Shown here: piece by piece, positions 6,960 to 25,730 of the stretch
Position numbering within the stretch: position 1 is the stretch's first letter
Layout of the letters: each line of letters starts with the position of its first letter
Translations under genes and position numbers: made by a program
Source: Patescibacteria group bacterium
GTDB lineage: Bacteria > Patescibacteriota > JACPGU01
Direction of reading: 5' to 3'
Length of the DNA stretch: 64,000 nucleotides
NCBI GenBank assembly: GCA_041675145.1
Contig: JBAYUK010000002.1
Coordinates: forward strand, 152,530 to 216,529
The notes under the pieces: model-generated
Told to the model about the DNA's origin: nothing
Databases searched by the model: none
What the model saw: the letters and a program-made list of their open reading frames with translations, nothing else

Positions 6960-8429
6960 ATGACAAGAACACGTTTCGCTCCAAGTCCAACTGGATATAT
7001 GCATATAGGTAGTCTCAGGACTGCTCTTTTTGCGTACCTATATGCAAAGAAGAATAACGGCCACTTTATTGTGCGTATTGAAGATACGGACCGTGAGCGA
7101 TTCGTTCCTGATGCTGAAGAGAGAATTCTTGAATCTCTTAAGTGGGCAGGTATTACTCCAGATAATGCGACCTACTTTATCTCACCTGAAGAATACTCAC
7201 TAGATAGTCATGGACCATATGTGCAGTCGAGGAGACTGGATATATACAAAACATATACCAAGCAGCTGATTGATTCAGGACACGCCTACTACGCGTTTGA
7301 TACCTCAGAGGAGCTTGATGCTATGCGTAAAAAGCAGGAAGCAGAAAAGAAAGCTCCTCGTTACGACAGAAACGCTATGCGTAACCAAATGACACTAGAG
7401 GAAGAAGAGACTACAGCGCTCATTGCTTCAGGAACTCCCCATACTATTCGCCTTAAAGTCCCTGAGAACGAGGTAGTTGCTTTCCAGGATGTAATTCGTG
7501 GAGAAGTGTCATTTAAAACATCTGAGATAGATGACCAGATCTTGATGAAGTCAGATGGATACCCAACCTACCACTTAGCGGTGGTGGTAGATGACCACCT
7601 CATGGAAATTACCCATGTAATTCGTGGGGAAGAGTGGTTGCCCTCTACACCAAAGCATATCTTGCTCTACCAAGCATTCGGTTGGGAGGCACCGTTCTAT
7701 GCTCACCTGCCACTTCTTGTTAATGAACAAAAACAAAAACTCTCAAAGCGAGAAGGGGATGTTTCAGTAGAAGACTTCAAAGATAAGGGCTATCTGCCAG
7801 AGGCTCTTGTCAATTTCATAGCTCTACTTGGATGGAATCCGGGCGACGAGCGTGAGTTCTTTAATCTTGGACAACTAGTTCAGGAATTCTCGCTGGAGCG
7901 TGTCCATAAAGCGCCAGCAGTTTTTGACATCAAAAAGCTTAACTCTATAAACTCACACTATATTCGCCAGATCGAGGTACTCGATCTCGTTGAAATGGTG
8001 AAGCCGTTCTCAAAACTTACTGTCTCTCCTGATGTGATGCTTAAAATTACCCTCGTACTGCGAGACAGATTAACTCATCTTGCCGAGTTTGACGCCCTCG
8101 CACAAGGCTTCTTAACTGTTCAAGAATACAGCTCAGAACTCTTGCAGTTTCCAAAGAGTACAAATGAGCATACCGTGCTTGGTTTGACAAAAGCGCTTGA
8201 AATACTGCAAAATAGTGAGACTGGTATATGGGATGACCAGGAGATGCTCACAGAAACACTTGGAAGTGTTGTGCATGAATTAGGGCTCAAGAACGGTGAT
8301 GTATTCTGGCCAGTGCGTGTTGCGCTCTCAGGACAAGAGAAGTCTGCCTCTCCGGTAGAGTTCCTCTGGGTGCTAGGAAAAGAGGAAAGTATAAAGCGTA
8401 TTGAGAAAGCTGTATCTTACCTGAAATAA
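6960..8429 (+). CDS. gltX: glutamyl-tRNA synthetase
   Basis: TRFAPSPTGYMHIGSLRTALF (HIGH region) and KLSKR (KMSKS-type) motif. Confidence 0.95.
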   Translation: MTRTRFAPSPTGYMHIGSLRTALFAYLYAKKNNGHFIVRIEDTDRERFVPDAEERILESLKWAGITPDNATYFISPEEYSLDSHGPYVQSRRLDIYKTYTKQLIDSGHAYYAFDTSEELDAMRKKQEAEKKAPRYDRNAMRNQMTLEEEETTALIASGTPHTIRLKVPENEVVAFQDVIRGEVSFKTSEIDDQILMKSDGYPTYHLAVVVDDHLMEITHVIRGEEWLPSTPKHILLYQAFGWEAPFYAHLPLLVNEQKQKLSKREGDVSVEDFKDKGYLPEALVNFIALLGWNPGDEREFFNLGQLVQEFSLERVHKAPAVFDIKKLNSINSHYIRQIEVLDLVEMVKPFSKLTVSPDVMLKITLVLRDRLTHLAEFDALAQGFLTVQEYSSELLQFPKSTNEHTVLGLTKALEILQNSETGIWDDQEMLTETLGSVVHELGLKNGDVFWPVRVALSGQEKSASPVEFLWVLGKEESIKRIEKAVSYLK

Positions 8430-8435
8430 CTATAT

Positions 8436-8506
8436 TGCGGGATCGTCTAGTGGTAGGACATCGCCCTCTGGAGGCGAGTACCTTGGTTCGAATCCAAGTC
8501 CCGCAG
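8436..8506 (+). tRNA. tRNA-Gln (anticodon CUG)
   Basis: Manual fold: acceptor TGCGGGA/TCCCGCA, U8, D-arm GTCT..GGAC with GG in the loop, anticodon stem TCGCC/GGCGA, loop CTCTGGA, T-arm CTTGG-TTCGAAT-CCAAG, discriminator G. Confidence 0.75.
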
Positions 8507-8612
8507 TTCTCTAGGGCACCCGACCGAGAGGGGTCAGGAGCCCTACTAGGCTACAGAAGCATTCTGAACTCTAGATAAGAAAAGTCACACATTTTAGGTG
8601 TGACTTTTCTGT
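8507..8612 (+). repeat. copy E of the island repeat family: 3' module only (tRNA-Gln trailer) plus intrinsic terminator
   Basis: ctagggcacccgaccgagaggggtcaggagccctactaggctacaga is near-identical to copies at 10317, 12378 and 28397; ends with hairpin gtcacacattttaggtgtgac + T-tract. Confidence 0.8.
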
Positions 8613-8884
8613 ATATTTAAAAAGAGACTTCATAAGAGTCTATATGGTAAGTAATGTTTTCAATTGCCATCAAGGCAGGTGAATGTTGTGGTAGTATTTG
8701 TAATAGTCTAATAAGTATGTTATAGTAACTGTATGAATAGAGCTATTCAAAACACTATGATGATGAAAATGACTAACCCATTAATGAGGGCTTGTTTTCT
8801 TGTCTAATTGTTTACATAGATAACCAAAGAAAACAGCCCTCTCACGGGGCTGTTTTTTAATTATAATAGTAAATAACTAAAAGT

Positions 8885-9664
8885 ATGAATATAACAATCA
8901 TAAACGATTGCCGGGATGCAAACGCTGTGGGCAGGCAGACAGCGAGAGTGGCTACACTTACAGGTTTCCCAGTCTCCTTTATTGGTGTTAAAAGTGATCT
9001 TGAGGCTGCAGGAAACCTTATTGATATTATAGATGCTCTCGAGGAAAGTACCGGAGCTATTCTCGTCAATGTTGCCCCCAGGAATGGCAAAGCCAAGAAG
9101 TGGAAAAATGGAACACCTTTTGGCTACTTTCGATACAAGAATATTCTTGTACTAACGAGTATAGACGGTTTTACGCTTTCTCTAGTAAAAAAGCTTAAGC
9201 TCATTGAGTCTATAACTATTCTTGATATACCAAAGGCACTGGATCAAATGATCTCAGGAGGGGTATTATCGAAGGAAATCAAGGATTTAGTTACGAGGAC
9301 GCAATTTAGAAGTTACGACTTCCTACCTCGTGTAGCTACCTACTTACTTAGTGGTAAAAACTTAGAAGGTGCTAAAATGAGCATAAAAGATGTACCGGAT
9401 GCACCAGCAGTAGTGTGGTGGGTTGATAACTTTGGAAATTGCAAAACGACTTTTCTAAATGAGGATAGAAAAGATGGTATTAGTTTTTACTCCAAATTTA
9501 GTAATCTGCCCTATTTTGAGAGATTAAAGGATGTTCCTGATGATACTGCTTCAATAGTTTCAGGAAGTTCTGGGATTGGAAAAAAACGTTTTCTAGAAAT
9601 TATTATTCAGGGCAAAAGTGCAGCAAATGAGTTTAATGTCTTCACTGGAGATGCCGTTGCCTAG
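8885..9664 (+). CDS. DUF62-family SAM hydroxide adenosyltransferase-like protein (chlorinase/fluorinase superfamily)
   Basis: N-terminus ITIINDCRD..VG..ARV, VNVAPRNGK (compare VDPGVG), and C-terminal WWVDNFGNCKTTF (compare IDRFGNLITN). Confidence 0.55.
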   Translation: MNITIINDCRDANAVGRQTARVATLTGFPVSFIGVKSDLEAAGNLIDIIDALEESTGAILVNVAPRNGKAKKWKNGTPFGYFRYKNILVLTSIDGFTLSLVKKLKLIESITILDIPKALDQMISGGVLSKEIKDLVTRTQFRSYDFLPRVATYLLSGKNLEGAKMSIKDVPDAPAVVWWVDNFGNCKTTFLNEDRKDGISFYSKFSNLPYFERLKDVPDDTASIVSGSSGIGKKRFLEIIIQGKSAANEFNVFTGDAVA

Positions 9665-9687
9665 ATACATATCCTCAAAATCTTATA

Positions 9688-10074
9688 GTGTTACAGACAG
9701 GAAGATTCAATTATAATAATACTAAATATTCTACTATGACAAATGTAAAATTAATTAAGTTTAGATTCAAGCCAGGTGCAAAGCGCATTTGGATTAATTG
9801 GTCTGAAGAGCTCAAGCATAGAAATAGCGAGGTAGTAGAGACTCTCAAGAATGAAGGTGTTATTTCTGAATCTTGTTTTATTTCGGAAGATGGTGAGTCA
9901 ATATACTATTTTATGGAAGCAGAAGACTTCGAAAAAACTCGTAAGGCTGTTGCGAATAGCATCTACTTGATAGATGCTGATCATAAGAAAGCTCGGGAGA
10001 GTAGCTTAGAATTTGTCGCAAAACTAGAATGTCTTTTTCATTTTGAGAACCGAACATCACACTTCAATTCTTAA
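9688..10074 (+). CDS. hypothetical protein
   Basis: ORF only; no recognisable motif. Confidence 0.4.
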   Translation: MLQTGRFNYNNTKYSTMTNVKLIKFRFKPGAKRIWINWSEELKHRNSEVVETLKNEGVISESCFISEDGESIYYFMEAEDFEKTRKAVANSIYLIDADHKKARESSLEFVAKLECLFHFENRTSHFNS

Positions 10075-10212
10075 ATTCTGATTTTCTAGCACTAGCTTGC
10101 CCCTCAAGTGCATCAATAGTTCTCGCTTCTCAATAACTGGTCCATCTCGTAGGGCGTACTTCGCGTAGTCTCGAATATTTATATCGGGACCTATTTTCTT
10201 CTTTTCACTGTC
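10060..10212 (-). pseudogene. C-terminal remnant (about 50 codons) of a second large serine recombinase
   Basis: Minus-strand translation ...EKKKIGPDINIRDYAKYALRDGPVIEKRELLMHLRGKLVLENQNLRIEV* aligns with the intact recombinase C-terminus ...EKQKKVDVSEIDIKNYAKYILKEGMLAEKRELLKNFKNKIILEDEILRIS*; DNA similarity is also visible against 19290-19390. Confidence 0.65.
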
Positions 10213-10214
10213 TC

Positions 10215-10440
10215 ATCTACCCTAGACCGAGACCCCTCAGATTACATAACTTACAACCTACTGGAAAAGACCTCAACTGACCCAATACTGGAGGTTCTTG
10301 ACCGAAGTAGCCAGTTGTCTAGGGCACCCGAGAGCCTGTCCTGAGCCTGTCGAAGGAAGACCGGTCAGGAGCCCTACTAGGCTACAGAATCTCTGTAAAG
10401 TCTAGATAAGAAAAACCACCTCATATGGGTGGTTTTTCTT
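10215..10440 (+). repeat. copy A of the island repeat family (5' module + 3' module with expanded variable loop + terminator)
   Basis: ctagaccgagacccctcagattacataacttacaacctactggaaaag..ctcaactgaccc..tggaggttct.gaccga ... agggcaccc..ggtcaggagccctactaggctacagaa ... aaagtctagataagaaa + hairpin ccacctcatatgggtgg + TTTTT. Confidence 0.85.
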
Positions 10441-10466
10441 TATAATTGTGGGTGGTTTTGGTATAG

Positions 10467-11088
10467 TATGCTTATTACACAGAAGATACTTAGTAGTAAT
10501 ACTGAAAACAAAATGATAACTAATTACGTTTCAGATATTGATAGTTGGGAGAAGTGGGAAAAAGAGTATCGTTATGGTCTTATCCTAGTCATGCCGCCAG
10601 AACCCACCTTCTCGATGGTTAATTCTCTTCGCGCAAAATATGATCCGAAATCCCAAGCTAGTTGTGATGCACATATTAGTTTATCAGTTCCAATCCCAAG
10701 ACCTGTAACTGAAGAAGATTGGGAAGAGTTACAAAACATCGCTTCAAAAATTGAACCATTTGAGATTAATTATGGTAAGCCCAAGGACTATCCGCCCTAT
10801 CCAGGAGTCGCTTATCCATTAGAAGACCAAACAGAATTAAATTCGGTGCGAGAGAAGATTGAAGCCGCTTCGTTATTTTCAGATGCTAAACCGAGAAAGT
10901 TTCCATTTAACCCACATATGACAATTGCAGAGTTTATCTCGAAAGAAGAAACCGTAGAGTTGTTAAAAGAACTAGAAAATAAAACGACTGCTGGCAGTTT
11001 TATGTGTGATGGGCTGGTTTATATTGTTCCTGATAAGAATATGTATTTTAATGTAGTGCGTAAACTTAACTTTGGGCAGAAAAAATAA
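10467..11088 (+). CDS. 2H phosphoesterase superfamily protein (LigT-like 2'-5' RNA ligase / cyclic phosphodiesterase)
   Basis: Two H-x-S/T-x motifs, HISLSV and HMTIAEF. The ORF-track start at 10429 lies inside the copy-A terminator hairpin, so the true start is downstream (10467 or 10513). Confidence 0.65.
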
Positions 11089-11204
11089 AGTAATTTGACA
11101 GAGAGATTAGTATTACCATGTAGAGCTTGAAGCTAAAGATGTGATTAGTTTAGTCAAAATAGTTTAGTGTTCCCCACCTTTTATCAATATTAAATTTAAT
11201 AGTA

Positions 11205-12269
11205 GTGAGTAGCTATATAGGAAAAGAATATATTGAAGATACGGAAAAAATAGAAGTACTTATTAAGTATAGTATTAGAGTTCCCGATAAGTTTGGGGAC
11301 TTCAATATGGATCTAAACAGTAGGCTGAAAGTGAGGGAAGGAAATGGAGTTCTATATATTAATATACATAGGAGTATATCGAAAAAACTATTTTCTGTTT
11401 TAGTAGAAGACTTTGCTAGTTCAGCAAAAGGCGATATCAGAGCAGCAGAGCGTTTAGTGCACCTGAGTGGTTATATAATTGGCTATATTCGCCCAACACT
11501 TCCTATTGTAGTTGATGAAATATATAAGAGAAAATATCTAGGGGGTCATATATTAACGCATTCTGTTTCAATGGTAGACGTATTTGATGTTAGTGTGTTG
11601 GATAGCCAAGGAAATGGGGTTGTCCTTGCATGGTGGCCTTCCACTATATCTTCTTTTCCTCCCTCTAGTGTTCTAGCCGCTGTATCAGATGCTGTATATA
11701 TTAGAGATTATATTGAGGTAATGGCAAGCTATTTTAACTACAATATAGATGATGGCATTAGAAGATCTATTACGTCTCTAGAAAATTACTTCATTCACTA
11801 CGGAGTAAAACCTAGTATAAAAAAAGGAAGATATCTTTATATAAAAAGGTTATTTCGCATGAAGGAAAGAAAGTTTAAAAGACTAGTTAACTATTTAGTT
11901 AGCGATAAGTATTACTCTATTAAAGAAAGTCATTTGAGAATACTAAGAAATAATATTTTATATATTTATCATGTCAGAAATAAAATAGTTCATGACAAGA
12001 CTCGAATATCGGCCTCTGATTCGTATATTGCAAAAAAGGCTATAGGTACGTTGTCTTATATTTATCAAAATACTATTACTTCGCAGAATCACTTAGAATA
12101 CATAAAGTCACTCACTCAGCAATTTATCGGTATAGAAGAAATATATTTTGGGATCAATTTAGATGAAATCGAACATCACAGAAGTAATACCAAGAAAGAA
12201 TCAAATTCTGATATAGATGATTTTATGTTTAGCGGCCTGGAGATAACTAAAGCTCAAAAAAAGTTTTAG
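11205..12269 (+). CDS. hypothetical AT-rich protein with C-terminal HEPN-like Rx4H motif (possible abortive-infection-type RNase)
   Basis: GTG start; YHVRNKIVHDKT (R-x4-H); strongly AT-biased codon usage compared with flanking genes. Confidence 0.4.
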   Translation: MSSYIGKEYIEDTEKIEVLIKYSIRVPDKFGDFNMDLNSRLKVREGNGVLYINIHRSISKKLFSVLVEDFASSAKGDIRAAERLVHLSGYIIGYIRPTLPIVVDEIYKRKYLGGHILTHSVSMVDVFDVSVLDSQGNGVVLAWWPSTISSFPPSSVLAAVSDAVYIRDYIEVMASYFNYNIDDGIRRSITSLENYFIHYGVKPSIKKGRYLYIKRLFRMKERKFKRLVNYLVSDKYYSIKESHLRILRNNILYIYHVRNKIVHDKTRISASDSYIAKKAIGTLSYIYQNTITSQNHLEYIKSLTQQFIGIEEIYFGINLDEIEHHRSNTKKESNSDIDDFMFSGLEITKAQKKF

Positions 12270-12279
12270 TAGCTTTATT

Positions 12280-12479
12280 TCACTCTAGACCGAGACCCCT
12301 CAGATTACATAACTTACAACCTACCGGAAAAGCCCTCAACTGACCCGATTGTGGAGGTTCTAGACCGAACTAGCCAGTTGTATAGGGCACCCGATCGAGA
12401 CTGGTCAGGAGCCCTACAAGGTTAGAGGATTAATGTAAAGTCTTGGTAGAAATAATCACCCAAAAAGGTGATTATTTCT
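12280..12479 (+). repeat. copy B of the island repeat family
   Basis: Same 5' and 3' modules as copy A; variable loop cccgatcgagactggtcagg; own terminator aatcacccaaaaaggtgatt + T-tract. Confidence 0.85.
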
Positions 12480-12511
12480 ATGAAAAGTGTTCTGTGTTAG
12501 AATAATCTCAT

Positions 12512-12826
12512 ATGAAAAACGAAGACAAAGAATCTGTTATAGAATGGCTTCAGGTTTTTGGATGGGGAGTATTAGCTCTTTCCCTATTTCTATTCATTGG
12601 ATTTATATATGCGTTAAGAGTATATCCTGGCACAGCATCAGTGTTCTATCTTATCTTTCCTATTGCAGGTTTTGCCTGCTTGATAGACTACGCAGTATTG
12701 TTTCTTATTCGAACCCAATATAGCCAAGGAAGAAAATACTTATTAATTCCAGGCATTTTATTTGTGCTTATAACACTCGTCCTTATTTTGGCATTTGCTG
12801 CAGGGCCACTTATTGGGCTTTTATAG
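12512..12826 (+). CDS. small integral membrane protein
   Basis: 104 aa with three hydrophobic helices; overlapping alternative-frame ORF 12487-12723 rejected. Confidence 0.4.
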   Translation: MKNEDKESVIEWLQVFGWGVLALSLFLFIGFIYALRVYPGTASVFYLIFPIAGFACLIDYAVLFLIRTQYSQGRKYLLIPGILFVLITLVLILAFAAGPLIGLL

Positions 12827-12873
12827 AATTTAGATTGGGCTTATTTTCATTTGACCATGTAGGGTCAGTGACA

Positions 12874-12910
12874 CATAAAACACGCCAAAAGGCGTGTTTT
12901 ATGATATAAT
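12874..12910 (+). promoter_or_regulatory. conserved hairpin (cataaaacacgc-N5-gcgtgttttatg) fused to extended -10 TGaTATAAT
   Basis: Perfect 12-bp stem; the same stem sequence recurs at 17920, 29145 and 29974. Confidence 0.6.
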
Positions 12911-12930
12911 AAATACAATATGCTCGTAAT

Positions 12931-13677
12931 ATGGATAAAAAAATGATTAGCAAAAAATCTATTCTATATATTAGCGCTCTGACTTTATTGCTAGCAATCA
13001 TAGGTGTTGGGTACTTCCTATCGACAAAAAACTCGCAACCGAGCACAACAATTAATACGCTTACTAACTCTAATGGCAATGATGCCTCCAGTGAGGAAAC
13101 TGAAAAAGAGACGGAGCCAGCTACTAATACTCAGACTATGGCCTCAGAAGACGTCAGCGCACAGACTATCAAAAAACTCCCTCTTGGAGGTAGTGTCTTA
13201 CAGGCAAAAAATAAACCAGGATACGAATACTATATTTGGCGAAACAACGAGATCGCCTATAGCGTATTTCATAATAAAGAAAAAAGTGTTAATGGAAATG
13301 CAGAAGGATTTTTCAGTCTTTCAAAAATAGGTCTTCGCCCTATAGCATTTAAGATTTATAAAGTATCAGAGCCAAGTTTAGAGTCATTTATTCAAAATCG
13401 CTACCATGAAGACGCTTCTGGTAATGGAGGGTATGATGGTCTTTTTAAGCTAAATAATCCAGGCAGTTCATTTGAAGAAGTTAAGCCTTTTGCAAAACCA
13501 CAAGGAGTACAAGATGCTCAATATATAAAAATAGGTCAATATGGCAGCGACTTGATGCAAATACACGAAGTCTGCTATATCTATTTCCACTCATATATAC
13601 TTGAAGGTTCATCTTGTCACTATGACGACTATAGTGATTTTATTAATTCTGGAGCTTTCCGGATCTACAAACTATAA
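12931..13677 (+). CDS. exported hypothetical protein (N-terminal signal anchor, S/T-rich linker)
   Basis: ORF with N-terminal TM/signal; internal overlapping ORF 13004-13330 rejected. Confidence 0.5.
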   Translation: MDKKMISKKSILYISALTLLLAIIGVGYFLSTKNSQPSTTINTLTNSNGNDASSEETEKETEPATNTQTMASEDVSAQTIKKLPLGGSVLQAKNKPGYEYYIWRNNEIAYSVFHNKEKSVNGNAEGFFSLSKIGLRPIAFKIYKVSEPSLESFIQNRYHEDASGNGGYDGLFKLNNPGSSFEEVKPFAKPQGVQDAQYIKIGQYGSDLMQIHEVCYIYFHSYILEGSSCHYDDYSDFINSGAFRIYKL

Positions 13678-13694
13678 GCTCACATAAAATCAAA

Positions 13695-13913
13695 ATGAAC
13701 AATATGATAATATTTGGAATTATTGGCCTACTTGGGATCTCCGCTGCCGTCTGGGTCAAAGATGAAAGACGACAGGATATCCTCTTTATTATCGGCGGTG
13801 CTTTTCTGCTCGCCTACAGCATCTACATTAACGATGCGATCTTCATTGCTCTGCAGATTATTTTTATTGTTTCGACCCTCTTTGAGTTAATTAAGATAAA
13901 TAAAACTAAGTAA
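13695..13913 (+). CDS. small membrane protein
   Basis: 72 aa, two hydrophobic helices. Confidence 0.35.
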   Translation: MNNMIIFGIIGLLGISAAVWVKDERRQDILFIIGGAFLLAYSIYINDAIFIALQIIFIVSTLFELIKINKTK

Positions 13914-13957
13914 CTATAGTTATTACATCGGCTGAGAAATAACGCTCAAGCTCTAAC

Positions 13958-15730
13958 CTAAGTTATTCTAACCTTACTTGCTTCATATAGTTCTCTAAAT
14001 AGGCCGCCATTCCTCTTTAGTTTTTCAAATGGACCGTTCTCAATAATGCATCCATCGCTGAGTACTATAATGGTATCGAATGAGTCGAGCATGGAATATT
14101 TGTGTGTTACATAGAGTAGGGTAAGGTCTGGGTATGCCTTCATGATATTTCCAACGACTTCTCGTTCAGTCTTTGGATCAAGGCTGGCAGTTGCCTCGTC
14201 GAGGATCAAGACGGGGTGATTTTGGAAAAGGGCACGTGCTATACCAATACGCTGTCGCTCTCCGCCAGAGATATTTAACGAACCTTCAAATAGCTGTTCG
14301 TCTACTCCCCTTGGTAATTGATTGATAAATTCCCCAAGACAGCAGATTCTTAGTAGCTCGCTTAGTTCTCCATCACTAGGGGACTCTGAGCTTGACGAGA
14401 TGTTTTCTCGTATGGTACCTCGGAATAGTTGCACTTCCTGCGGAACTATGCTAAAAACATCAACAATATCTTTTCCGTTTAGTTTGCGATACTCAATGTT
14501 ATTGATCGTAACCGATCCTTGGTAATCGGTAATTGCTTTTAATATTACATCGAGTAGGGTTGATTTTCCGCCTCCAGTATGTCCGACAATAGCAATCTTC
14601 TCCTTTTCTTTTATTGTGAAACTAGCGTTGGTTAGATTTTCTCGCTCGTCACGAGAGACTCCTACATTAGACAGAGCAAGCTTTTTAAAACGATCCTTGA
14701 GTAGACCTGTTTTTACTAGAGATTGTCCTTCAAGGGGTATAGCAATCTCTTCGTTGAAGCGCTGGAGTGCCGTCGCTCTTTCAGAGAAACTTTCCAAGTA
14801 GCCCACCAGGGTGCCTATCTGCCCCGATAGTTTACCAACGAAGGCAAGAACAACGGTCATAGTTCCGATGGTGAAGTTTCCGTTCATAACATTCGTCACA
14901 CAGAAAATAAATACCAGGATCATAGTCACTTGTTCTAGTTGTCCATTGTTGTACCATTTGCGTAAGCTGCGTCGAATTACTTCGGTACGTTTTTTATATG
15001 ATTCCTCTATTTTTTCTGCGATATCGGCTTGTTGTTTGGCAAATAAGTTAAGATAGAAGACCGTCTTGAAGTTGTTCAAAAATTCGACAATTCCACCCGT
15101 TAGAGCTTCTTCTTTCTTTGACCATTCTATTCTGGCCTTTTCTTCTCTTCTTCCAAATACGATAACATTTACTATCGAGAGTCCTGAGGTTATAAGGAAA
15201 ATAACCAAAATAAGTGGCTTAATAAATGCAGTAGACATCAGAATACCTATCACTGATCCAACAGAGCTTAAGTAGCGATGGAGGATATCGTCAGTCAGAC
15301 GATATATGCTGTCATATGCAGAATCAATAATCTTTAAAAACACCCCGCGATTTTTTAGTTTAAAGAAATCGATCGGAGCATTTTCGAATAATCGGATCGC
15401 GTCGTTTCTGAAGTCTCGGCCAACTTTGGCTGCGATATTGAGACATTTGGATACTGTAATAATGCTTATTGCGGGAGAGATAAACAAGAACACTACATAT
15501 ATTACCAATAGTGTGTAGAGTTCTCTGGAACTGAAATCTCCGGTAGCTAACGCATCAATAATAGCACCGAAAATAATTGGAGTAGCTATTCCAATACCAA
15601 CGAGAATAGTTTGAATAAAAAACCAAAACCAATAGCTCGGATAGCGATTTATATATCGAATGGTGAGCCTGAGGGCGTATAGGTCGTTTTTTGTCATGAT
15701 TATTTGGATTGTATCATAAGATACCCCCAT
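13958..15730 (-). CDS. ABC exporter, fused permease/ATPase (MsbA-like)
   Basis: Walker A GHTGGGKST, signature LSGGERQRIGIARAL, Walker B ILDEATASLD; six N-terminal TM helices. Confidence 0.9.
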   Translation of the reverse strand: MGVSYDTIQIIMTKNDLYALRLTIRYINRYPSYWFWFFIQTILVGIGIATPIIFGAIIDALATGDFSSRELYTLLVIYVVFLFISPAISIITVSKCLNIAAKVGRDFRNDAIRLFENAPIDFFKLKNRGVFLKIIDSAYDSIYRLTDDILHRYLSSVGSVIGILMSTAFIKPLILVIFLITSGLSIVNVIVFGRREEKARIEWSKKEEALTGGIVEFLNNFKTVFYLNLFAKQQADIAEKIEESYKKRTEVIRRSLRKWYNNGQLEQVTMILVFIFCVTNVMNGNFTIGTMTVVLAFVGKLSGQIGTLVGYLESFSERATALQRFNEEIAIPLEGQSLVKTGLLKDRFKKLALSNVGVSRDERENLTNASFTIKEKEKIAIVGHTGGGKSTLLDVILKAITDYQGSVTINNIEYRKLNGKDIVDVFSIVPQEVQLFRGTIRENISSSSESPSDGELSELLRICCLGEFINQLPRGVDEQLFEGSLNISGGERQRIGIARALFQNHPVLILDEATASLDPKTEREVVGNIMKAYPDLTLLYVTHKYSMLDSFDTIIVLSDGCIIENGPFEKLKRNGGLFRELYEASKVRIT

Positions 15731-15763
15731 TTTTAGTATCCTTTATGATATAATGCACACATT

Positions 15764-16840
15764 ATGGCAATCATTATTTCAAAAAACGGCAAGGATGCGA
15801 AAAAAGTAGATAAGTCTACTTTTGATAGAGAAGACTATCTCCAGCAGTATATTTATGACAATCCGGAAAGCATACCGCTTTATGAGATCAGAGAAGATAT
15901 ACGGATGGTGATTCTAGCTCGCGAGTTTAATACAAATAGTGGTCCTATTGATGCTATTGGATTTGATAAAGACGGAGAAATATACATTGTTGAAACAAAA
16001 CTCTACAAGAATCCAGACAAGAGGACAGTTGTCGCTCAAGCACTAGATTATGGTGCTGCCCTCTGGAGACACGCCAACGATTTTAATGTATTTATCGATA
16101 CACTGAATGCATATACGAGCAAGCATTTCCAGCAAAGCGTACAAGAAAAGTTGCAGAATTTCTATGAGATCTCAGAAGATGAATCGTTAAAGATAGTCGA
16201 AAAAGTTCGAACAAATCTCAACGACGGCATATTTCATTTTGTAGTACTCATGGATCAGCTGAGCGATAGACTCAAAGACCTGGTTGTATATGTGAACCAA
16301 AACAGTCAATTTGATATCTATGCAGTCGAACTCGAATATTATCGTCATGAAGAACATGAAATTATTATTCCAAAGATCTTTGGTGCAGAGGTGAAAAAAG
16401 ACATCAAGGTATCTACCTCAAATAGCGCTCGCAAAAGATGGAGTGAAGACGAACTTCTGAATGCCGCAAAAAGCACATTATCTTCTGAGGGATATGCCGC
16501 CTTTGAAAAGTTGTATGTGTTTTCAAAGGAGCATGCGGATAATGTTAGTTTTGGCACTGGTACATCTTCGGGATCATTTAGTCCTATTTTTAGCAGTGTT
16601 TGCCCACGCTCTCTTTTTACACTTCGCACTAACGGCACACTGAGTCTTAACTTCCAATGGATTAATGGCTACGATGGAGCAGAGGAATTCCGCAGTCTGT
16701 ATTTTGATAAGATGAGGCAAATAGGGTTGGACTTGTTGCCTGCTGATATTGAGAAGTACCCAAATTTTTCATTAGACCAATGGCTGCAATACTCTGACAA
16801 TATCCTCGCCGTGTTGAGTGATATTACGAGGTTAAAATAG
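15764..16840 (+). CDS. PD-(D/E)xK nuclease, RecB-family-like
   Basis: PIDAIGFDKDGEIYIVETK (D..D/E-x-K) followed by QALDY (QxxxY motif). Confidence 0.5.
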   Translation: MAIIISKNGKDAKKVDKSTFDREDYLQQYIYDNPESIPLYEIREDIRMVILAREFNTNSGPIDAIGFDKDGEIYIVETKLYKNPDKRTVVAQALDYGAALWRHANDFNVFIDTLNAYTSKHFQQSVQEKLQNFYEISEDESLKIVEKVRTNLNDGIFHFVVLMDQLSDRLKDLVVYVNQNSQFDIYAVELEYYRHEEHEIIIPKIFGAEVKKDIKVSTSNSARKRWSEDELLNAAKSTLSSEGYAAFEKLYVFSKEHADNVSFGTGTSSGSFSPIFSSVCPRSLFTLRTNGTLSLNFQWINGYDGAEEFRSLYFDKMRQIGLDLLPADIEKYPNFSLDQWLQYSDNILAVLSDITRLK

Positions 16841-16907
16841 TTAACTATCAGGACAGTACCCGACCAATAATGGTCGGGATTGTTACATACACCAAGAGCT
16901 TCACACC

Positions 16908-17819
16908 ATGCTAATTATATTTGTAGTTTTTCTCCAGTCTCTATTGTTCGCTATCTTTAATCTAAATATCCGTAAACTTGAGGAGCAAGGGGTTTCTGCC
17001 CATACCATTGCCGGGCTACAACGGTACGCAGTTATCCCGTCAGCCATGCTTTTGCTAGTAACATATAAGCATGAATATCTCTTGATTCTATTACGAAATC
17101 CCGAGTCTTTTTGGTGGATAGCAGGTATCGCATTTTTTTGGGGTATCGCTCAATATATTGGATATACTGTTATTAATTCAGCAAGCTCTCTTTCTATAGT
17201 AAGTACATTTAGTTCGTTAATAGGAATTCCTGTTATGGTGGCAATGGGCGTGTTAATTAATAATGACTATCCAAACCCTTTAATTATTGTTGCTTTGATG
17301 TTGTTGGTTGTGGCAATTATCATCAAGCCTACTCAACATAATGAAAATAAGCTCCATCTTCTCAAATATAGTTTAATTATGGTTATTAGTCTTGTGTTCA
17401 CGAGCAATGTTGGTCATGCGTTAGACGGGGCTCTCTACAAGAATCTTCTTTATGTACTTGATTCGAGAGCGGTGCTCTTTGGTATCTCGGTTTATACGTT
17501 TGTAACTTCGGCAACATTGGGCGTGATATATCTTTTACCGATATTTAGGAAACCATCAAAAGAAGAACAAGCACTAGTTAAAAAACACTTTTTGGTAGCA
17601 TATTCTATACCTGTTTTTTGGTTTATTGCATCAATTCCAGAAGGATACTCATTTGCAAATCTACCATTATTTACCTTGAGCGCGCTCGGTGCGTTTGGTT
17701 TCCTGATCAAGATGTGTTCTGACCTTACAAATAAACGTCTTGCCTGGAGTTGGCGCACCGCTTTATTCATTGCAATTATTATTGCGAGTATTGTTTTCTC
17801 AGCTCTTTCTTTGCAATAA
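16908..17819 (+). CDS. polytopic membrane protein (about 10 TM), function unknown
   Basis: Hydrophobicity pattern only. Confidence 0.45.
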   Translation: MLIIFVVFLQSLLFAIFNLNIRKLEEQGVSAHTIAGLQRYAVIPSAMLLLVTYKHEYLLILLRNPESFWWIAGIAFFWGIAQYIGYTVINSASSLSIVSTFSSLIGIPVMVAMGVLINNDYPNPLIIVALMLLVVAIIIKPTQHNENKLHLLKYSLIMVISLVFTSNVGHALDGALYKNLLYVLDSRAVLFGISVYTFVTSATLGVIYLLPIFRKPSKEEQALVKKHFLVAYSIPVFWFIASIPEGYSFANLPLFTLSALGAFGFLIKMCSDLTNKRLAWSWRTALFIAIIIASIVFSALSLQ

Positions 17820-17919
17820 CTAATTTTTAATAGACCGAGAACTGCCAGTTACTCCTGGCAGCAGACCGAAAGGTCTATTCCGCCAGGTTAGAAATCGTTC
17901 GAGCCCGAGACGGATCGAA

Positions 17920-17960
17920 CACATAAAACACGCTACAATTAGCGTGTTTTATGTTAAAAT
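17920..17960 (+). promoter_or_regulatory. conserved hairpin (acataaaacacgc-N8-gcgtgttttatgt) + extended -10 TGtTAAAAT; ATG of downstream gene 7 nt after the -10 (leaderless)
   Basis: Same stem as 12874, 29145 and 29974; the -10 ends at 17960 and the ATG is at 17967. Confidence 0.6.
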
Positions 17961-17966
17961 AGAATC

Positions 17967-18440
17967 ATGGAGCCATCAAAATCTCAAAGAAAATACGAAG
18001 AACTTCAACGATCCTGTGCCAGGATAGAGGATCTCTATAAGGGTTTGATTATAAATAATGAAGGGCAGGACACTCTTCAATCACCAAAAGATATCTTACT
18101 GAATTTCTTTAGGGTTTGTTATGAGCTGAAAGAAGCTTTAAAAAGAGATCCTACTCTACCTATAGAATTTAAGGATGGGGTCGAGAAGTTTTGGAAAACT
18201 AATAGATATGCTGCGCTTAGCCTTGATGTTGCCAATCAGGAAAAACATATTACTCTTGGCAGTAATAATAAGTCAGGCCATAGGATTGGTAAGATTAATA
18301 CCCAGATACATTCATTATCACCCGACGGAAAGCCTGATCATACTAGAGTAACTATTGAGATAGATGGTGTGGCACAGGATGGTCTAGATCTGGCTAAGAA
18401 AGTTTTACTGGCTTGGAAGGAACTATATGAAAAGATATAG
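17967..18440 (+). CDS. hypothetical protein (first gene of a two-gene cassette)
   Basis: ORF; the stop overlaps the next start. Confidence 0.5.
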   Translation: MEPSKSQRKYEELQRSCARIEDLYKGLIINNEGQDTLQSPKDILLNFFRVCYELKEALKRDPTLPIEFKDGVEKFWKTNRYAALSLDVANQEKHITLGSNNKSGHRIGKINTQIHSLSPDGKPDHTRVTIEIDGVAQDGLDLAKKVLLAWKELYEKI

Positions 18441-19242
18441 AGTATCAAACTTTTATATAAACACAGAAGGAAATCTGCTAAGAAATTTACCCCAAGGCTT
18501 GGGGCCAGATGATGTGAATTACCAATCTTTTGTTGAAAGATATGGAAAAAGGGATTTTGATCAAAAATTGCAACGATATCTAAGCATTGAGAATCCAGTA
18601 CTTTCTGTAGTACAGGATCACATCCCTTTATTAGAAGAGATTAATAACTCATATGTAGCTGGAAATTTTTATTCATGTTTAACGGCCGCATGTTGTCTTG
18701 GAGAGAGAATATTTAATGATGTATTCTTTGCCATAAACGGCGATCATAAATCTTCTGATTGGTATAGAAAATACTGGAATAAGGGGGTAATACAGAACTG
18801 GCCAGATGGAATTAGTATGTTACATGAATGGAAGGTTATAGATGAAGAAACAAGAAAGAAGTATCTACTGCTCTATAAATTGCGAACCTATTCGGTTCAC
18901 TTTCAGAAAAGTGAACAGGACTTCGAGAAGATGTCGTTTGAGGCTATCGAGATAATTAATTGTATCGTCAGAAGAATATTTGGTATGAATGAGTATAGAA
19001 AGGATATACTTATTCATTTCGAAGTTCCAGGAGAGATATTCATAAGAAAAGGAGCTGAGTTGCTGCCTATAGTAAAAGCGTTTTATATACCCGCATCCCA
19101 CAAGTTGGGATATATGTATAAGGTTGAGTCTACTGCAAATCCGGGCCAATATCAGATCACAGATGACAACGAATACGAAAGCAAAGAAATTACGGACGAA
19201 GAATTTGTAGTTTTAAGGAATAACTTCGTTAGTAATCCTTAG
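18427..19242 (+). CDS. hypothetical protein (second gene of the cassette)
   Basis: ORF; 3' end convergent with and overlapping the recombinase stop. Confidence 0.5.
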   Translation: MKRYRVSNFYINTEGNLLRNLPQGLGPDDVNYQSFVERYGKRDFDQKLQRYLSIENPVLSVVQDHIPLLEEINNSYVAGNFYSCLTAACCLGERIFNDVFFAINGDHKSSDWYRKYWNKGVIQNWPDGISMLHEWKVIDEETRKKYLLLYKLRTYSVHFQKSEQDFEKMSFEAIEIINCIVRRIFGMNEYRKDILIHFEVPGEIFIRKGAELLPIVKAFYIPASHKLGYMYKVESTANPGQYQITDDNEYESKEITDEEFVVLRNNFVSNP

Positions 19243-20567
19243 GATATTCTGAGTATTTCATCCTCTAGTATTATTTTGTTCTTAAAGTTCTTCAATAGCT
19301 CTCGTTTTTCAGCTAGCATACCTTCTTTCAGAATGTACTTCGCATAGTTCTTGATATCTATTTCTGACACATCTACTTTCTTTTGTTTTTCATTATTTCC
19401 CAACACATGTGCTTGAAAGTTTCCGTATCGTTTGAGCTCATGTTTTACGCGTTCGTAAATACCCAGCTCGTTCATATCAATCTGGTCAATAATCTTTATT
19501 AACTCGCTGATAAGGTTAGTCTCATTGATGCTATTGCTGCAGCTCTTGTCTCTGCTTTTCGTGCAGGCATAGTAAATATGCTTATTGAACGACCCATTGA
19601 TCAGTTTCTTATACTTCTCATTAGCGGATATACCTGAGCCACATTTACCGCAGGTAAGTAATCGCGTGAAGGCGAATTCTTTTCCTGTTACTGCTGAGTT
19701 ATATCTTTCCTTGAGACACTTTTGTGCCTCGTCAAAGAGTTCTTTAGATATTAGTGGAGTATGTGCTCCCTGATACCAATTGCCACTTTTCTTCGGGTAT
19801 TCAAAGCTACCGTAGTAGAAGTGATTATTGAGGATGGTGTAGATGTTGCTGAGTGACAAATGTTTTCCGCTACTGGCTCTGAAGTCTTTTTCAAACTTTA
19901 ACCAGGCGTACATCTGTCTCCCGCTTATTCCCTGATACACGACTCGCTCAAATATCTCTCGAATAACTGGTGCTCGTTCCGGATCGAGGACAGGATCGCA
20001 CTTTTTCATTCGGTTAGGGTTGTTGAGGTACCCAGTAGGAGCTCGTGAAGGCCACATACCCATCTCACAGCGGGTTCTTAAACCTCGCTTCACATTCACT
20101 CCCTTGTTATCATTCTCGAGCTTGGCCTGAGAACCGAGGATCATGAGGAGAAACTTCTCATTCGGATTGTTAGAGAACTTTTGTCCGTAGGTTCTAATCT
20201 CAATGATCTTCTTCTGATCCATCATGTCGACGATGGAGCCGAGGTCTCCTGCGTTACGGCTCAAGCGGTCAGGCGCCCAGGTGAGAATAGAATTGTATGT
20301 ACCATTCCGAATACCGGCTATCATTTCGTTAAAGACCGGGCGTTGCCCGGTCTCTTTCGCTGAGTGACTTTCTCGCAAGATGTCGATAATCTCAATACCT
20401 TCTCGTTGGGCCAGGACCATCATCTCCTTGATTTGTGAATCAATGGACAGCGCCTGGCGCTCGTCTGACTCGGTTGACTTCCTCGCATAGAGGCAGTACT
20501 TGGTTTCTTCTGCTATTACGGTACTTGCTTGTGTTTGCATCATATCTAATGAATGACGCGAACCCAC
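19239..20567 (-). CDS. large serine recombinase (integrase)
   Basis: Resolvase catalytic domain YARKSTESDERQ...PDRLSRN, recombinase domain, C-terminal zinc-ribbon CGKCGSG...YYAC. Confidence 0.9.
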   Translation of the reverse strand: MGSRHSLDMMQTQASTVIAEETKYCLYARKSTESDERQALSIDSQIKEMMVLAQREGIEIIDILRESHSAKETGQRPVFNEMIAGIRNGTYNSILTWAPDRLSRNAGDLGSIVDMMDQKKIIEIRTYGQKFSNNPNEKFLLMILGSQAKLENDNKGVNVKRGLRTRCEMGMWPSRAPTGYLNNPNRMKKCDPVLDPERAPVIREIFERVVYQGISGRQMYAWLKFEKDFRASSGKHLSLSNIYTILNNHFYYGSFEYPKKSGNWYQGAHTPLISKELFDEAQKCLKERYNSAVTGKEFAFTRLLTCGKCGSGISANEKYKKLINGSFNKHIYYACTKSRDKSCSNSINETNLISELIKIIDQIDMNELGIYERVKHELKRYGNFQAHVLGNNEKQKKVDVSEIDIKNYAKYILKEGMLAEKRELLKNFKNKIILEDEILRIS

Positions 20568-20908
20568 CCAGTAGTCTAGGCTTATTATTCGTTGCTAATA
20601 AAAGCTCTTCGCAAGGCTCCAGATGTAAGCTAAGATACGTGGACTTTTGCCGTATTCGTGGTAAAATGACTTAACAATTGAGTAGTGCCTAACCCCGAAG
20701 TTTTCGCTTCGGATATGGCGCAAAACCCCCAACCAAGATACTGAACCCCGTGTTCAGCAACTCTTGGTTGGGTCATATCGGGAAACTGATATGGAGTCGC
20801 AAGACTCGGCTGGCGCGGGGCTTAGTGTATCTAAGCGTTGTTGCCAGCTACTTATTATAGAGAGCTGGATTTTTTTATTATTAACGCACAATACTAATAA
20901 CTACATAT

Positions 20909-21370
20909 ATGAGCAATACAACAAACGATAAAGAGTTTAAGGGGTATAACGGCACGCTAATACTCACCAATACAGGAATTATCATAAAGCGTGGCACGAA
21001 GGGATTCCTGCTCGGTGGCTTCCAGATGAGAGGAGACAAAACGATACCGTATAGCAGTATTGTGGCAGTACAGTTTAAGAAGGCTGGGTTATCTGCCGGT
21101 TATATCCAGTTTACTCTCAAGGGAGGATCAGAGGCAAAAGGCGGTTTGCTCCAGTCAACCAGAGATGAGAACAGTATTAATTTCCACTCCAATAGAAACA
21201 AAGAGTTTATTGAAGCAAAGGAGCTTATCGAACAGCGCATTGGTTCAGAAGGATCATCTGCTAGACCAAGCGAACTCGATGAGCTTACAAAACTCGCTAC
21301 TCTGAAAGACAAAGGCATTATTAATCAGAAAGAGTTTGACGCTAAGAAAAAACAGCTCCTTGGCTTATAA
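20909..21370 (+). CDS. PH-like (DUF4429-type) domain protein with C-terminal SHOCT domain
   Basis: C-terminal LKDKGIINQKEFDAKKKQLL matches the SHOCT pattern. Confidence 0.55.
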   Translation: MSNTTNDKEFKGYNGTLILTNTGIIIKRGTKGFLLGGFQMRGDKTIPYSSIVAVQFKKAGLSAGYIQFTLKGGSEAKGGLLQSTRDENSINFHSNRNKEFIEAKELIEQRIGSEGSSARPSELDELTKLATLKDKGIINQKEFDAKKKQLLGL

Positions 21371-21392
21371 TAATCATTAGTAACTCACCACA

Positions 21393-22055
21393 ATGGCATT
21401 TATCAATGGCTTCTTTTCGTTCCTATTCTTTATTTCGTTTATTTTATTGATTGTGGGGCTAATTGCTCCTAAGAAAGTAAGTAGGCTTTTGAAGAAAGAT
21501 TGGGACCGCAAGATGATCGCAAAAACTATCGGTCTGGTCTCGTTGGCATCCTTCGTTATTGCAGTGGCTACTACGCCCGCTGTTCCGGTATCTCCAAAAG
21601 CTACTAAAACGTCTACAGTTACTGAAACCACTGAGCAGGTTCAGGCAATAAATGTAGAGGAGCCACAAGAAATTGTGTCAGAGGAAGTTAAAGAAGCGGC
21701 CAAGGATTCAGCAGTAAGTGAAACTAAGCCAGCAACATCATCGCCGACTCCTCAAAAGACCACCAACTCGAGTCCTGCTCAAACGACCACTTCTCCTACG
21801 CCAGCGACATCGAGCCCTACACCAACTCCACAACCAGCACCAACAACCCCCGCGCCTACTCAACCAGCACCACAACCAGCACCAGTTCCATCTGGTCACA
21901 CGTTTTATACCAGTTCGCACTATAGCGCAAAATTATATTACTGTGATACAGATGAAGGGTGGAGAGGCCTTTCACCAAGTTATCTCAAATCTTTTCCTAG
22001 CGCCGAAGCATTATTGAAAGTATACCCAAGAACACTTCACGAGCCGTGTAAATAA
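21393..22055 (+). CDS. secreted/anchored Pro-Thr-rich protein with conserved Cys-containing C-terminal domain (paralog of the next gene)
   Basis: N-terminal TM, PT-rich linker, C-terminal HTFYTSSHYSAKLYYCDTDEGWRGLSPSYLKSFPSAEALLKVYPRTLHEPCK. Confidence 0.6.
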   Translation: MAFINGFFSFLFFISFILLIVGLIAPKKVSRLLKKDWDRKMIAKTIGLVSLASFVIAVATTPAVPVSPKATKTSTVTETTEQVQAINVEEPQEIVSEEVKEAAKDSAVSETKPATSSPTPQKTTNSSPAQTTTSPTPATSSPTPTPQPAPTTPAPTQPAPQPAPVPSGHTFYTSSHYSAKLYYCDTDEGWRGLSPSYLKSFPSAEALLKVYPRTLHEPCK

Positions 22056-22058
22056 AGT

Positions 22059-23189
22059 ATGGAAAGTAGCGCTTTAACCCTTTTATTCTTCTTACTGTTT
22101 ATAGCTTCAGTTGTATTACTGATTGCTGGATTAATATGGCCGCCGATTCTCAAGCGACTTATTAAGTCTGTTCCCACTAGAAAAGCAATAGCCTTATTCT
22201 TCTCGGGGCTAATAGTGACTTCTTTCATTGGAGTAGCGGTCTTCGTTCCGCATAGTAATAGTAGAATAACTGCTGATACTGTTTCAGAGGAAAAAACAAA
22301 CATAGAGCAAGAAGCTCAAGGCGTACCTGTTAGCACCCAAGACGGTGTCGGTGCTGGCACTATTGAAGAAGTTACTGCCGAGAAAACGGTGCGGTCACTT
22401 CCTGATCAAGCTTCTAGTAGCACAAAAACAGCGACACCGACGCCCGCGCCGAGCCAACCAACTTCAGCACCCGCCAAGCCCGCGCCGAGCCAAGTTCCAG
22501 TAGTTGCACCACCTGCACCCACACCAGCCACGACCACGTACTTCTCAGTCGTTTCCGTAACTGACGGAGATACTTTTAAAGTATCTATAGATGGGAAGAC
22601 TGATACTATACGTATTATCGGTGTAGATACTCCAGAAACTGTTGATCCAAGAAAACCCGTGCAATGTTTTGGGGTAGAAGCTTCAAGCAGAGCCAAGGCT
22701 TTACTTACTGGAAAGAAAGTAAGATTGGAGTCGGATAGTGTCTCGGGTGATCGAGACAAGTATAACCGCTTGCTTCGTTATGTGTGGCTCGAGGATGGTA
22801 CTTTTTTTAACGAGACCATGATATCCGAAGGATACGCCTTCGAATACACTTATCAAAGTCAGGCATATGTGTACCAGTCTGAATTCAAGAAAGCTGAACA
22901 GAACGCAAAGAATTCAAAGCTAGGACTTTGGGCGGATAATGCCTGTAATCAGACAACGCAATCTGCCGTAGTGCCACCTGTAGTTTCGCCTCCCGCAACA
23001 GCTCAGCCCGTACCTACTACAACATCTTCGCATGTATTTTATACGAGCTCATATCATACTGCTCAATATTACTATTGCGATACTGACAACGGATGGAAGG
23101 GTCTTTCGCCGAGTTATCTTAAATCATTCCCAAGTGCTGAGGCGTTACTGAAGGTATACTCGAGAACACTTCACGAACCCTGTAAGTAG
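22059..23189 (+). CDS. secreted thermonuclease (staphylococcal nuclease fold) with the same C-terminal domain
   Basis: SNase core DGDTFKV...IRIIGVDTPE...RLLRYVW...GYA; C-terminal HVFYTSSYHTAQYYYCDTDNGWKGLSPSYLKSFPSAEALLKVYSRTLHEPCK. Confidence 0.8.
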   Translation: MESSALTLLFFLLFIASVVLLIAGLIWPPILKRLIKSVPTRKAIALFFSGLIVTSFIGVAVFVPHSNSRITADTVSEEKTNIEQEAQGVPVSTQDGVGAGTIEEVTAEKTVRSLPDQASSSTKTATPTPAPSQPTSAPAKPAPSQVPVVAPPAPTPATTTYFSVVSVTDGDTFKVSIDGKTDTIRIIGVDTPETVDPRKPVQCFGVEASSRAKALLTGKKVRLESDSVSGDRDKYNRLLRYVWLEDGTFFNETMISEGYAFEYTYQSQAYVYQSEFKKAEQNAKNSKLGLWADNACNQTTQSAVVPPVVSPPATAQPVPTTTSSHVFYTSSYHTAQYYYCDTDNGWKGLSPSYLKSFPSAEALLKVYSRTLHEPCK

Positions 23190-23636
23190 CTATTCTGATA
23201 TGCCCTTTTCCTCTTCAGCCATCTCCTTATGAAGCTTTAGTGCCCATTCTGCGATCGTCTCCGGTGGCGTTTCATTGATGATTATGGAGTGTACTGGAAC
23301 GAATGACTCAACATCTTTTGTAGGTACTTTGGGTGTATACTCCGGGTCTCTGCTCTTAAGCTGAAATACGATAGCCTGCATATTGCCTTCTTTTATCTTT
23401 TGCGTTAAGGCAGACTTAGCAAGATCGTTTAATGCAGCTCTTCCGAGTTTACGCGCCTTGGTTACTTCATCTGCAAGATCCATATCTTCTTCGATCCAGC
23501 GATAGAATGTTGCACGGGAGACGCCTGCCTTTTTGCATACTATGGATATATTGTCGAGTTCACTTAACAAGGCAAGAATCTCTTTCTTGTTTTTAGCAAT
23601 TCTTTTTTGGTCAGTTTTAGCTTTCTTGTCTTCCAT
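23190..23636 (-). CDS. HTH protein resembling phage terminase small subunit
   Basis: CKKAGVSRATFYRWIEED helix-turn-helix near the N-terminus; located next to two DNA methyltransferases as in phage packaging modules. Confidence 0.45.
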   Translation of the reverse strand: MEDKKAKTDQKRIAKNKKEILALLSELDNISIVCKKAGVSRATFYRWIEEDMDLADEVTKARKLGRAALNDLAKSALTQKIKEGNMQAIVFQLKSRDPEYTPKVPTKDVESFVPVHSIIINETPPETIAEWALKLHKEMAEEEKGISE

Positions 23637-25630: not shown

Positions 25631-25654
25631 AATATATTCTCCTAAATTTACCAA

Positions 25655-25730
25655 TAAAAAATGCCCACTCTGCAAAATAACAAACCAGGAAGATTTACTC
25701 CCTAAATTTATTTTTCTGCAAAGTGGGCAC
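25655..25730 (-). terminator. large-loop intrinsic terminator for the 117-aa gene
   Basis: Inverted arms atgcccactctgcaaaata / ttttctgcaaagtgggcac followed on the minus strand by TTTTTTATT. Confidence 0.5.

Follow-up and report, generated by a model that had tools for sequence, protein, structure and literature searches.

What does a 51-codon piece of a recombinase gene signify when it lies at the edge of a long direct repeat in the genome of a Patescibacteria bacterium? The window analyzed here, the whole 64-kb stretch of DNA, encodes one intact large serine recombinase (LSR). An earlier note had described a truncated second copy ending at the left edge of a repeat and had read it as a recombination or deletion scar. 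The features that bear on the fragment itself are the following.

10057 to 10212, minus strand: LSR pseudogene stub (last 51 codons plus stop), identified by homology to the LSR C-terminal tail and lacking a start codon
19239 to 20567, minus strand: intact LSR of the putative element E3, with the Pfam domains Resolvase, Recombinase, and Zn_ribbon_recom
9736 to 10074, plus strand: DUF6176 gene (Pfam PF19673, E 2.2e-17), a gene called in L087 and L088

The stub was confirmed as the dead 3' remnant of a second large serine recombinase gene. Its minus-strand translation from 10060-10212 is DSEKKKIGPDINIRDYAKYALRDGPVIEKRELLMHLRGKLVLENQNLRIEV, and a TGA stop occupies 10057-10059. BLASTP matched this peptide without gaps to residues 393-441 of the 442-residue intact LSR (22/49 identities [45%], 76% positives, E 9e-12). 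When the intact LSR was searched against the whole 64-kb window by tblastn, as the note had suggested for a narrower region, the stub was the second match (E 1.2e-7), and no further LSR piece, the N-terminal part included, was found. The DNA similarity to the 19290-19390 region was present but modest (roughly 60% across about 140 nt). Among 120 family members, the best relatives of the stub (P0006, P0003, and P0004) were 56-58% identical to it (E 1e-16 to 4e-15), with alignments reaching their last residues. These best alignments ended no more than 1 residue from the C termini (e.g., residues 366-415 of 415 in P0006), and the stub is related to the family by descent, having significant tail homology and ending at the family stop position. 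A protein database search with the 51-aa stub alone returned 0 candidates, as too few exact words were in common. Because the stub is so divergent from the intact LSR at the amino acid level, it is not a recent duplicate, and a second recombinase-bearing element was once present at the locus, which agrees with the proposal that at least two such elements have occupied it.

The features of a functional LSR are missing from the stub. The resolvase catalytic domain with its serine nucleophile is absent, as are the Recombinase and zinc-ribbon domains, and only the residues equivalent to 393-442 remain. No translatable open reading frame (ORF) of ≥20 aa with a start codon exists in the stub frame, and in-frame stops lie upstream at 10213-10215 and 10219-10221. 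The DNA to the right of 10212 is occupied by repeat copy A, whose left edge was placed at 10211 by repeat finding and at 10209 by an HMM of its 5' half (designated X). The stub and the outer edge of X in copy A (X_A) meet within about 5 nt, and the reported coincidence of the two boundaries held at this resolution. At its other end, the last 18 nt of the stub are overlapped by the convergent DUF6176 gene. The stub itself is an ordinary pseudogene, a product of routine gene decay. Of the scar reading, the dead remnant stands, whereas the way in which the N-terminal 390 codons went is treated below as part of a proposed model.

An assembly artifact, in which a chimeric join or a repeat collapse hides an intact second LSR, was highly improbable. 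Assemblies of MAGs frequently break or misjoin at repeats, but the stub/repeat boundary here is unique sequence. A 300-kb ENA contig and a 1720-nt Logan contig, which come from independent assemblies, match the window at 100% across the junction, so the truncation is not an assembly artifact. The short Logan contig (window 8528-10247) ends inside repeats on both sides, which might raise the same suspicion but is normal where repeats occur, and it spans the stub/repeat boundary; the boundary was the same in three assemblies from different runs. No additional LSR-like sequence was found within the window.

We likewise give next to no credence to the idea that the LSR gene was split on purpose, either by an excisable intervening element or by an attP inside the integrase gene that detaches the tail on integration. 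Such arrangements exist for other genes and phages, as in sigK/skin, spsM/SPbeta, and mycobacteriophage BPs. At this locus, however, the 64 kb contained neither an N-terminal LSR part nor a C-terminally truncated LSR, the intact LSR has its own tail, and two in-frame stops stand at the boundary. A split or reconstitutable gene was rejected, since tblastn found no matching LSR portion in the window.

The stub is convergent with a tRNA-Gln(CTG) gene 1550 nt away, directly downstream of the GltX gene. From this tRNA onward, the island comprises the following features in addition to those listed above.

8435 to 8507, plus strand: tRNA-Gln(CTG), the island anchor (ARAGORN; Rfam tRNA, 61.6 bits)
8508 to 8610, plus strand: putative attL-type module M3, with the palindrome TAGGGCACCCGACC-GAGA-GGGGTCAGGAGCCCTA, a 21-nt core (8517-8537), and a terminator hairpin (8578-8610)
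8885 to 9664, plus strand: small cargo ORF (259 aa) of the putative element E1, with a weak SAM_HAT_C match; a gene called in L087 and L088
10208 to 10315, plus strand: 5' half of repeat A (X_A), with the 9-mer TGTCTCAT, then ACCCTAGACCGAGACCCCTCAGAT... and ...GGTTCTTGACCGAAGTAGCCAG (nhmmer E 2e-36); candidate LSR-distal end of E1
10316 to 10442, plus strand: 3' half of repeat A (M3_A), a copy of the tRNA-Gln flank with its core split by a 23-nt insertion and a terminator hairpin at its end
10468 to 12269, plus strand: cargo of the putative element E2, without a recombinase (a 2'-5' RNA ligase/LigT-like gene and a 354-aa ORF)
12271 to 12505, plus strand: repeat B (X_B and M3_B), core at 12388-12408
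17828 to 17961, plus strand: partial junction remnant (AATAGACCGAGAACTGCCAG...) with a D4-type hairpin, 1.4 kb past the 3' end of the intact LSR
20686 to 20807, plus strand: LOOT RNA (RF03000; 88.7 bits versus a gathering score of 46.4), divergent from the intact LSR
20909 to 28210: putative E3 cargo (SHOCT/DUF4429, SNase, small-terminase-like HTH, two N6_N4 methyltransferases, and S24 peptidase)
28284 to 28497, plus strand: repeat C (X_C and M3_C), with an exact core at 28401-28421 and tandem TGTCTCATT 9-mers before it
29023 to 29191, plus strand: putative attR-type junction (X_D at 29023-29127, core at 29128-29148, then a native-type D4 terminator hairpin)

Repeats A (10208-10442), B, and C are each ~210 nt long and about 80-90% alike. 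The fourth copy, D, consists of the 5' half X alone, and the 3' half, M3, stands alone directly 3' of tRNA-Gln(CTG). The M3 half of the repeats copies this tRNA flank, forming an imperfect palindrome with the terminator hairpin at its end, and M3 was absent after two control tRNAs of the window. The 21-nt core CACCCGACCGAGAGGGGTCAG occurs at 8517, 12388, 28401, and 29128, always on the plus strand, with 0 occurrences expected by chance, and the att-like junctions have in common the consensus CACCCGACCG[A/T]GAGGGGT[C/T]AG. The island thus starts at the 3' end of the tRNA gene, with M3 taking over at 8508, and direct core repeats are found at both ends and at the internal boundaries, that of repeat A being disrupted. 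In repeat A, the core was not recovered at ≤3 mismatches. The insertion lies at the center of its palindromic core (about 10331-10358), with GAGCCTGTC repeated inside; should the core be a site of recombination, this junction would no longer be active.

A shorter motif, GACCGAGA, occurs eight times in the window, all on the plus strand (1.07 expected). It is found after tRNA-Gln, at the 5' edge of X in copies A, B, and C, and also in the middle of X and in the palindrome of copy C. Past the intact LSR, 1.4 kb and two ORFs separate its 3' end from an occurrence at 17833, a layout like that of the stub. One site is inside a coding region and is probably due to chance.

The composition of the window also varies along the island. 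The GC content dips at 10-14 kb and is raised at 20-26 kb. Across 12-26 kb, the GC skew drops to about zero or lower; the cargo region at 20909-28210 is higher in GC content and reversed in GC skew. The genes at 20.9-28.2 kb look like mobile-element cargo, and no tyrosine integrase was found among the island ORFs scanned against Pfam. Within this cargo, a 152-nt direct repeat (21903-22054 and 23037-23188, 74% identical) covers the 3' ends of the adjacent genes 21393-22055 and 22059-23189, and the C-terminal segment of the first of these recurs upstream of the LSRs in L010, L027, and L032. Elsewhere in the window, a second tRNA-Gln (TTG; 58748-58820, minus strand), which has no LSR-type flank and was used as a control, adjoins a class A RNase P RNA (57675-58028, minus strand, 183.8 bits).

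A hairpin family, CATAAAACACGC-loop-GCGTGTTTTATG, each copy followed by a TATAAT-like hexamer, was observed in the window. Copies occur at 12853-12911, 17903-17961, 29133-29191, and 29953-30011, and also after tRNA-Glu at about 41810-41850. In front of three copies stands GACC..G.(A/G)GGGT.AG, a sequence similar to the att core. The family looks like a combined terminator and promoter module that is reused between genes.

To place the stub, the intact LSR was compared with its relatives. It is a member of the LSR family by its Pfam domains, in the order Resolvase (E 4.8e-21), Recombinase (E 2e-14), and Zn_ribbon_recom (E 7.2e-07), and falls within a very large clade that extends across the Patescibacteria, with about 60% identity among its members. 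P0001, from a 366-kb contig of a Patescibacteria MAG, matched it at 100%. The nearest solved structure is SPbeta SprA/YokA (E 1.6e-16), and identity to phage LSRs is ≤27%.

We surveyed 82 LSR loci (L002-L086), 80 from GTDB genomes and two from metagenomes. Downstream of the LSR (329 kb) there were 59 tRNAs, 54 of them convergent with the LSR, and upstream (344 kb) there were 2. Where a tRNA lay within 5 kb downstream, the nearest one was convergent in all 44 of 44 loci, at 89-4289 nt from the LSR stop. The LSR-facing tRNAs were most commonly Gln, Ser, and Arg, with Trp, Met, Asn, and Asp also represented. This integrase family adjoins tRNA genes far more consistently than expected, and the stub lies where a working family member would sit relative to the tRNA. 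The small ORFs between the tRNA and the LSR (at the stub, at the intact copy, and at other loci) showed no homology among them.

A conserved block of about 28 nt, with GACC(C)GAG at its end, lies directly 3' of the LSR-facing tRNAs, as in AGACAATTTAGTATCGGAGTGACCCGAG or AGTCATATACTAAGTCAGGTGACCGAGAC. GACC(C)GAG was present within 50 nt 3' of 14/40 LSR-facing tRNAs versus 0/21 other tRNAs from the same loci (background, 0.003 per 50 nt), and its position relative to the tRNA end varied between loci. In the window, tRNA-Gln(CTG) is followed by ...CTAGGGCACCCGACCGAGAG, and nothing similar follows the two control tRNAs. An HMM of the flank block built from 33 loci had no significant match in the window, so the link between the window and the family rests on the 8-mer and on the likeness to one subtype.

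Homologs of X appeared only with an HMM and came from one other MAG (SO_2017_GW1_156). In one of its loci, L061, a 5.3-kb element is flanked by tRNA-fMet and a second tRNA-Met, and the homolog (E 4.5e-8) is found at the end of this element that is farther from the LSR. In the other, L012, the homolog (E 1e-22) abuts the 3' end of a 481-aa LSR paralog. Tandem TGTC[T/G]CATT 9-mers, a ACCCTAGACCGAGAC.CCTCA segment, and ...GGTTCTAGACCGAG..AGCCAG are common to the X homologs. When the LSR loci were searched by short-word blastn with X, M3, and the D4 hairpin as queries, nothing but LOOT was found. Scans with an X-half pattern gave 0 matches in genome contigs; the one match in metagenome contigs, inside a coding region, was attributed to chance, and so were 15 matches in viral contigs, which were unlike X beyond the pattern and lay on contigs with no LSR.

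Tandem 9-mers were also seen just outside X in two unrelated genomes, at window 28277-28295, at about 2450-2475 in L012, and at about 1305-1325 in L061. Outside X the unit is TGTCTCATT in two copies, and in L012 and L061 two copies of TGTCGCATT lie nearer to X. These 9-mers may be candidate binding sites for an accessory protein.

No other LSR remnants were found in the 82 LSR loci, and the only full paralog was that of L012 (861-2306). This paralog lies 2.7 kb upstream of the family LSR, its stop codon is overlapped by the X-like module, and it is 41% identical to the window LSR over residues 23-356 but has a different tail.

LOOT RNA was present in 7/13 other scanned loci of the LSR family, where it usually comes first on the divergent cargo side.

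L007, L010, L013, L027, and L032: LOOT RNA 150-600 nt upstream of the LSR, divergent from it
L031, 759 to 876: LOOT RNA
L023, 6353 to 6487: LOOT RNA

This distribution suggests that LOOT, an orphan Rfam motif, is a component of the LSR elements. Literature searches for LOOT function, for the LSR clade, and for CPR serine integrases at tRNA genes found nothing. A 358-aa protein encoded at window 15764-16840, for which a NucS_C match, a weak one, was the only match, has a 70% identical homolog in L031 (9-710) directly downstream of the LOOT RNA and may be a recurrent cargo of LSR elements.

Two comparisons bear on the outer boundaries of the island. The closest relative by GltX, L104, has in common with the window the order DnaE-L19-RNase HII-GltX-tRNA-Gln, and there a plain terminator hairpin, with no M3 or X, directly follows tRNA-Gln; with GltX only 64% identical, this relative is too remote for aligning a putative attB base by base. 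On the far side, the hairpin after X_D (CATAAAACACGC...GCGTGTTTTATG) is of the type found after the native tRNA-Glu of the window, and the hairpin in L104 is analogous to it. A tandem junction comparable to those of the window was present in L018 (4450-5700). There, the DNA that separates the intact tRNA-Asn from the LSR includes a second, 85-nt copy (88% identical) of the 3' end of this tRNA with its flank, and the partial tRNA-Asn runs straight into ...TATCGAGTGACCGAGAG.

These observations allowed us to weigh a rival account, in which a deletion simply left the stub behind and the ~210-nt repeats are unrelated to the recombinase. They would then be a lineage-specific intergenic repeat, for instance a MITE-like element, a small RNA gene, or a terminator module, adjoining the stub by chance. 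The repeats do fold stably (z about -4.6 on either strand) and carry terminator hairpins at their ends, they had no Rfam match over 8300-12700 at the gathering threshold or at E ≤1, they are rare outside the genome of the window, and the tRNA-flank HMM was not significant in the window. Nevertheless, they carry GACCGAGA, which is found after LSR-facing tRNAs in other genomes; their X half recurs beside LSRs in another MAG; and their M3 half is exactly the tRNA-Gln flank, which the closest relative lacks. Consistent terminal inverted repeats were also absent, the terminator hairpins being the only ones found in both copies examined (B and C); a weak 16-nt, 75% inverted pair in copy B was not found in copy C. 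We therefore consider this account rather unlikely. Its MITE or small transposable repeat version was rejected on this ground, such elements being expected to carry terminal inverted repeats and target site duplications. We also discarded a long-range base pairing of the X edge with the M3 loop, which only copy C has kept.

That the repeats mark mobile-element junctions, as first proposed, was supported by the copying of the tRNA-Gln flank in their 3' half and by the recurrence of their 5' half at the far end of an LSR element elsewhere, with further backing from the occurrence of GACCGAGA after LSR-facing tRNAs across the family. To the picture given by the earlier note, the present analysis adds the tRNA-Gln anchor, the canonical family position of the stub, and the appearance of the 8.5-29.1 kb region as one tandem array.

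We consider it likely that the stub derives from a mobile element inserted just 3' of tRNA-Gln(CTG) and that the region from 8508 to ~29150 is a tandem array of related elements, a reading that we infer from the arrangement of the sequence. The island would be a roughly 20-kb stack of mobile-element remnants adjoining tRNA-Gln, inserted between the tRNA and its original terminator. Its putative units are E1 (8508-10315), which carries the stub; E2 (10316-12378), with no recombinase; E3 (12379-28390), with the intact LSR, the LOOT RNA, and cargo genes; and a short terminal segment after E3. Every element would begin with M3 and finish with X, and repeats A, B, and C would therefore be X|M3 junctions laid out like attP. 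By the same logic, the tRNA|M3 boundary would correspond to attL and the boundary between X_D and the native terminator to attR. E1 may have undergone an internal deletion that removed everything from about LSR codon 392 to the outer edge of X, leaving the att-like ends in place and the recombinase lost. Directly observed are the homology of the stub, its missing start codon, the places of the repeats and cores, and the tRNA association across the family; from the layout of the junctions we propose att roles for the modules, a sequence of events, and a mechanism for this deletion.

Several points count against the array model. Integration by LSRs normally needs only a 2-bp shared core and does not itself make long direct repeats or tandem arrays, and long direct repeats, atypical of LSRs, are a weak point of the model. 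The putative deletion endpoint in E1 falls within 5 nt of the outer edge of X, a precision for which the model does not account. The flank-block HMM was not significant in the window, the place of the motif relative to the tRNA end varies, and the one candidate empty site is that of a distant relative. Finally, X is known from one other genome only.

More speculatively, the LSR clade may consist of dedicated integrases for tRNA 3' ends that are accompanied by LOOT, with the X|M3 sequences serving as live attP-like sites. The intact LSR might then capture, stack, and remobilize E1 and E2, and the stub would mark a unit that can be mobilized in cis rather than dead junk. We hold this extension to be possible but tentative.

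Whatever its mechanism, the stub serves as a marker: at least two serine-integrase elements have entered the tRNA-Gln locus of a CPR bacterium. It also pointed the way to the family pattern of LSR genes that face tRNA genes, with a conserved junction block and LOOT alongside. Such a setting, with serine integrases of one clade turned toward tRNA genes in CPR bacteria, is of moderate interest and still awaits proof. If the pattern is confirmed by experiment, the function of LOOT would become testable, the clade would offer a new set of serine integrases whose natural attB sites adjoin tRNA genes, and the island would show how gene cargo builds up in very small Patescibacteria genomes.

The nearest analogs of the proposed array appear to be the composite SCC islands of staphylococci and the tRNA-linked accretion of elements by tyrosine integrases. 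Composite or tandem SCC islands are built by Ccr large serine recombinases and contain repeated integration-site sequences and psi-SCC remnants without ccr. Like SCC, the island involves a large serine recombinase and insertion at the 3' end of a conserved housekeeping gene, and its putative tandem elements would be separated by direct att-core repeats, some units being without a working recombinase. Unlike in SCC, the anchor is a tRNA gene rather than rlmH, the host belongs to the Patescibacteria, the repeats at the putative junctions measure about 210 nt rather than about 15-20 nt, and the LSR is distant from characterized LSRs. The tRNA 3' end has been described as the usual target of tyrosine integrases (PMC4701971). 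With ICE/CIME accretion and tRNA-linked islands, the locus has in common the tRNA 3' end, direct repeats at each putative element boundary, and recombinase-less, putatively att-flanked units beside an element with an intact integrase, but the recombinase here is of the serine type. The intact LSR resembles the phage LSRs (SPbeta SprA/YokA, TP901-1, Bxb1, and phiC31) in its Resolvase, Recombinase, and zinc-ribbon domains, SprA being the best solved match. It differs from them in belonging to a distinct Patescibacteria-wide clade with a conserved tail of ~50 residues, in facing a tRNA gene, and in the LOOT RNA that is often adjacent.
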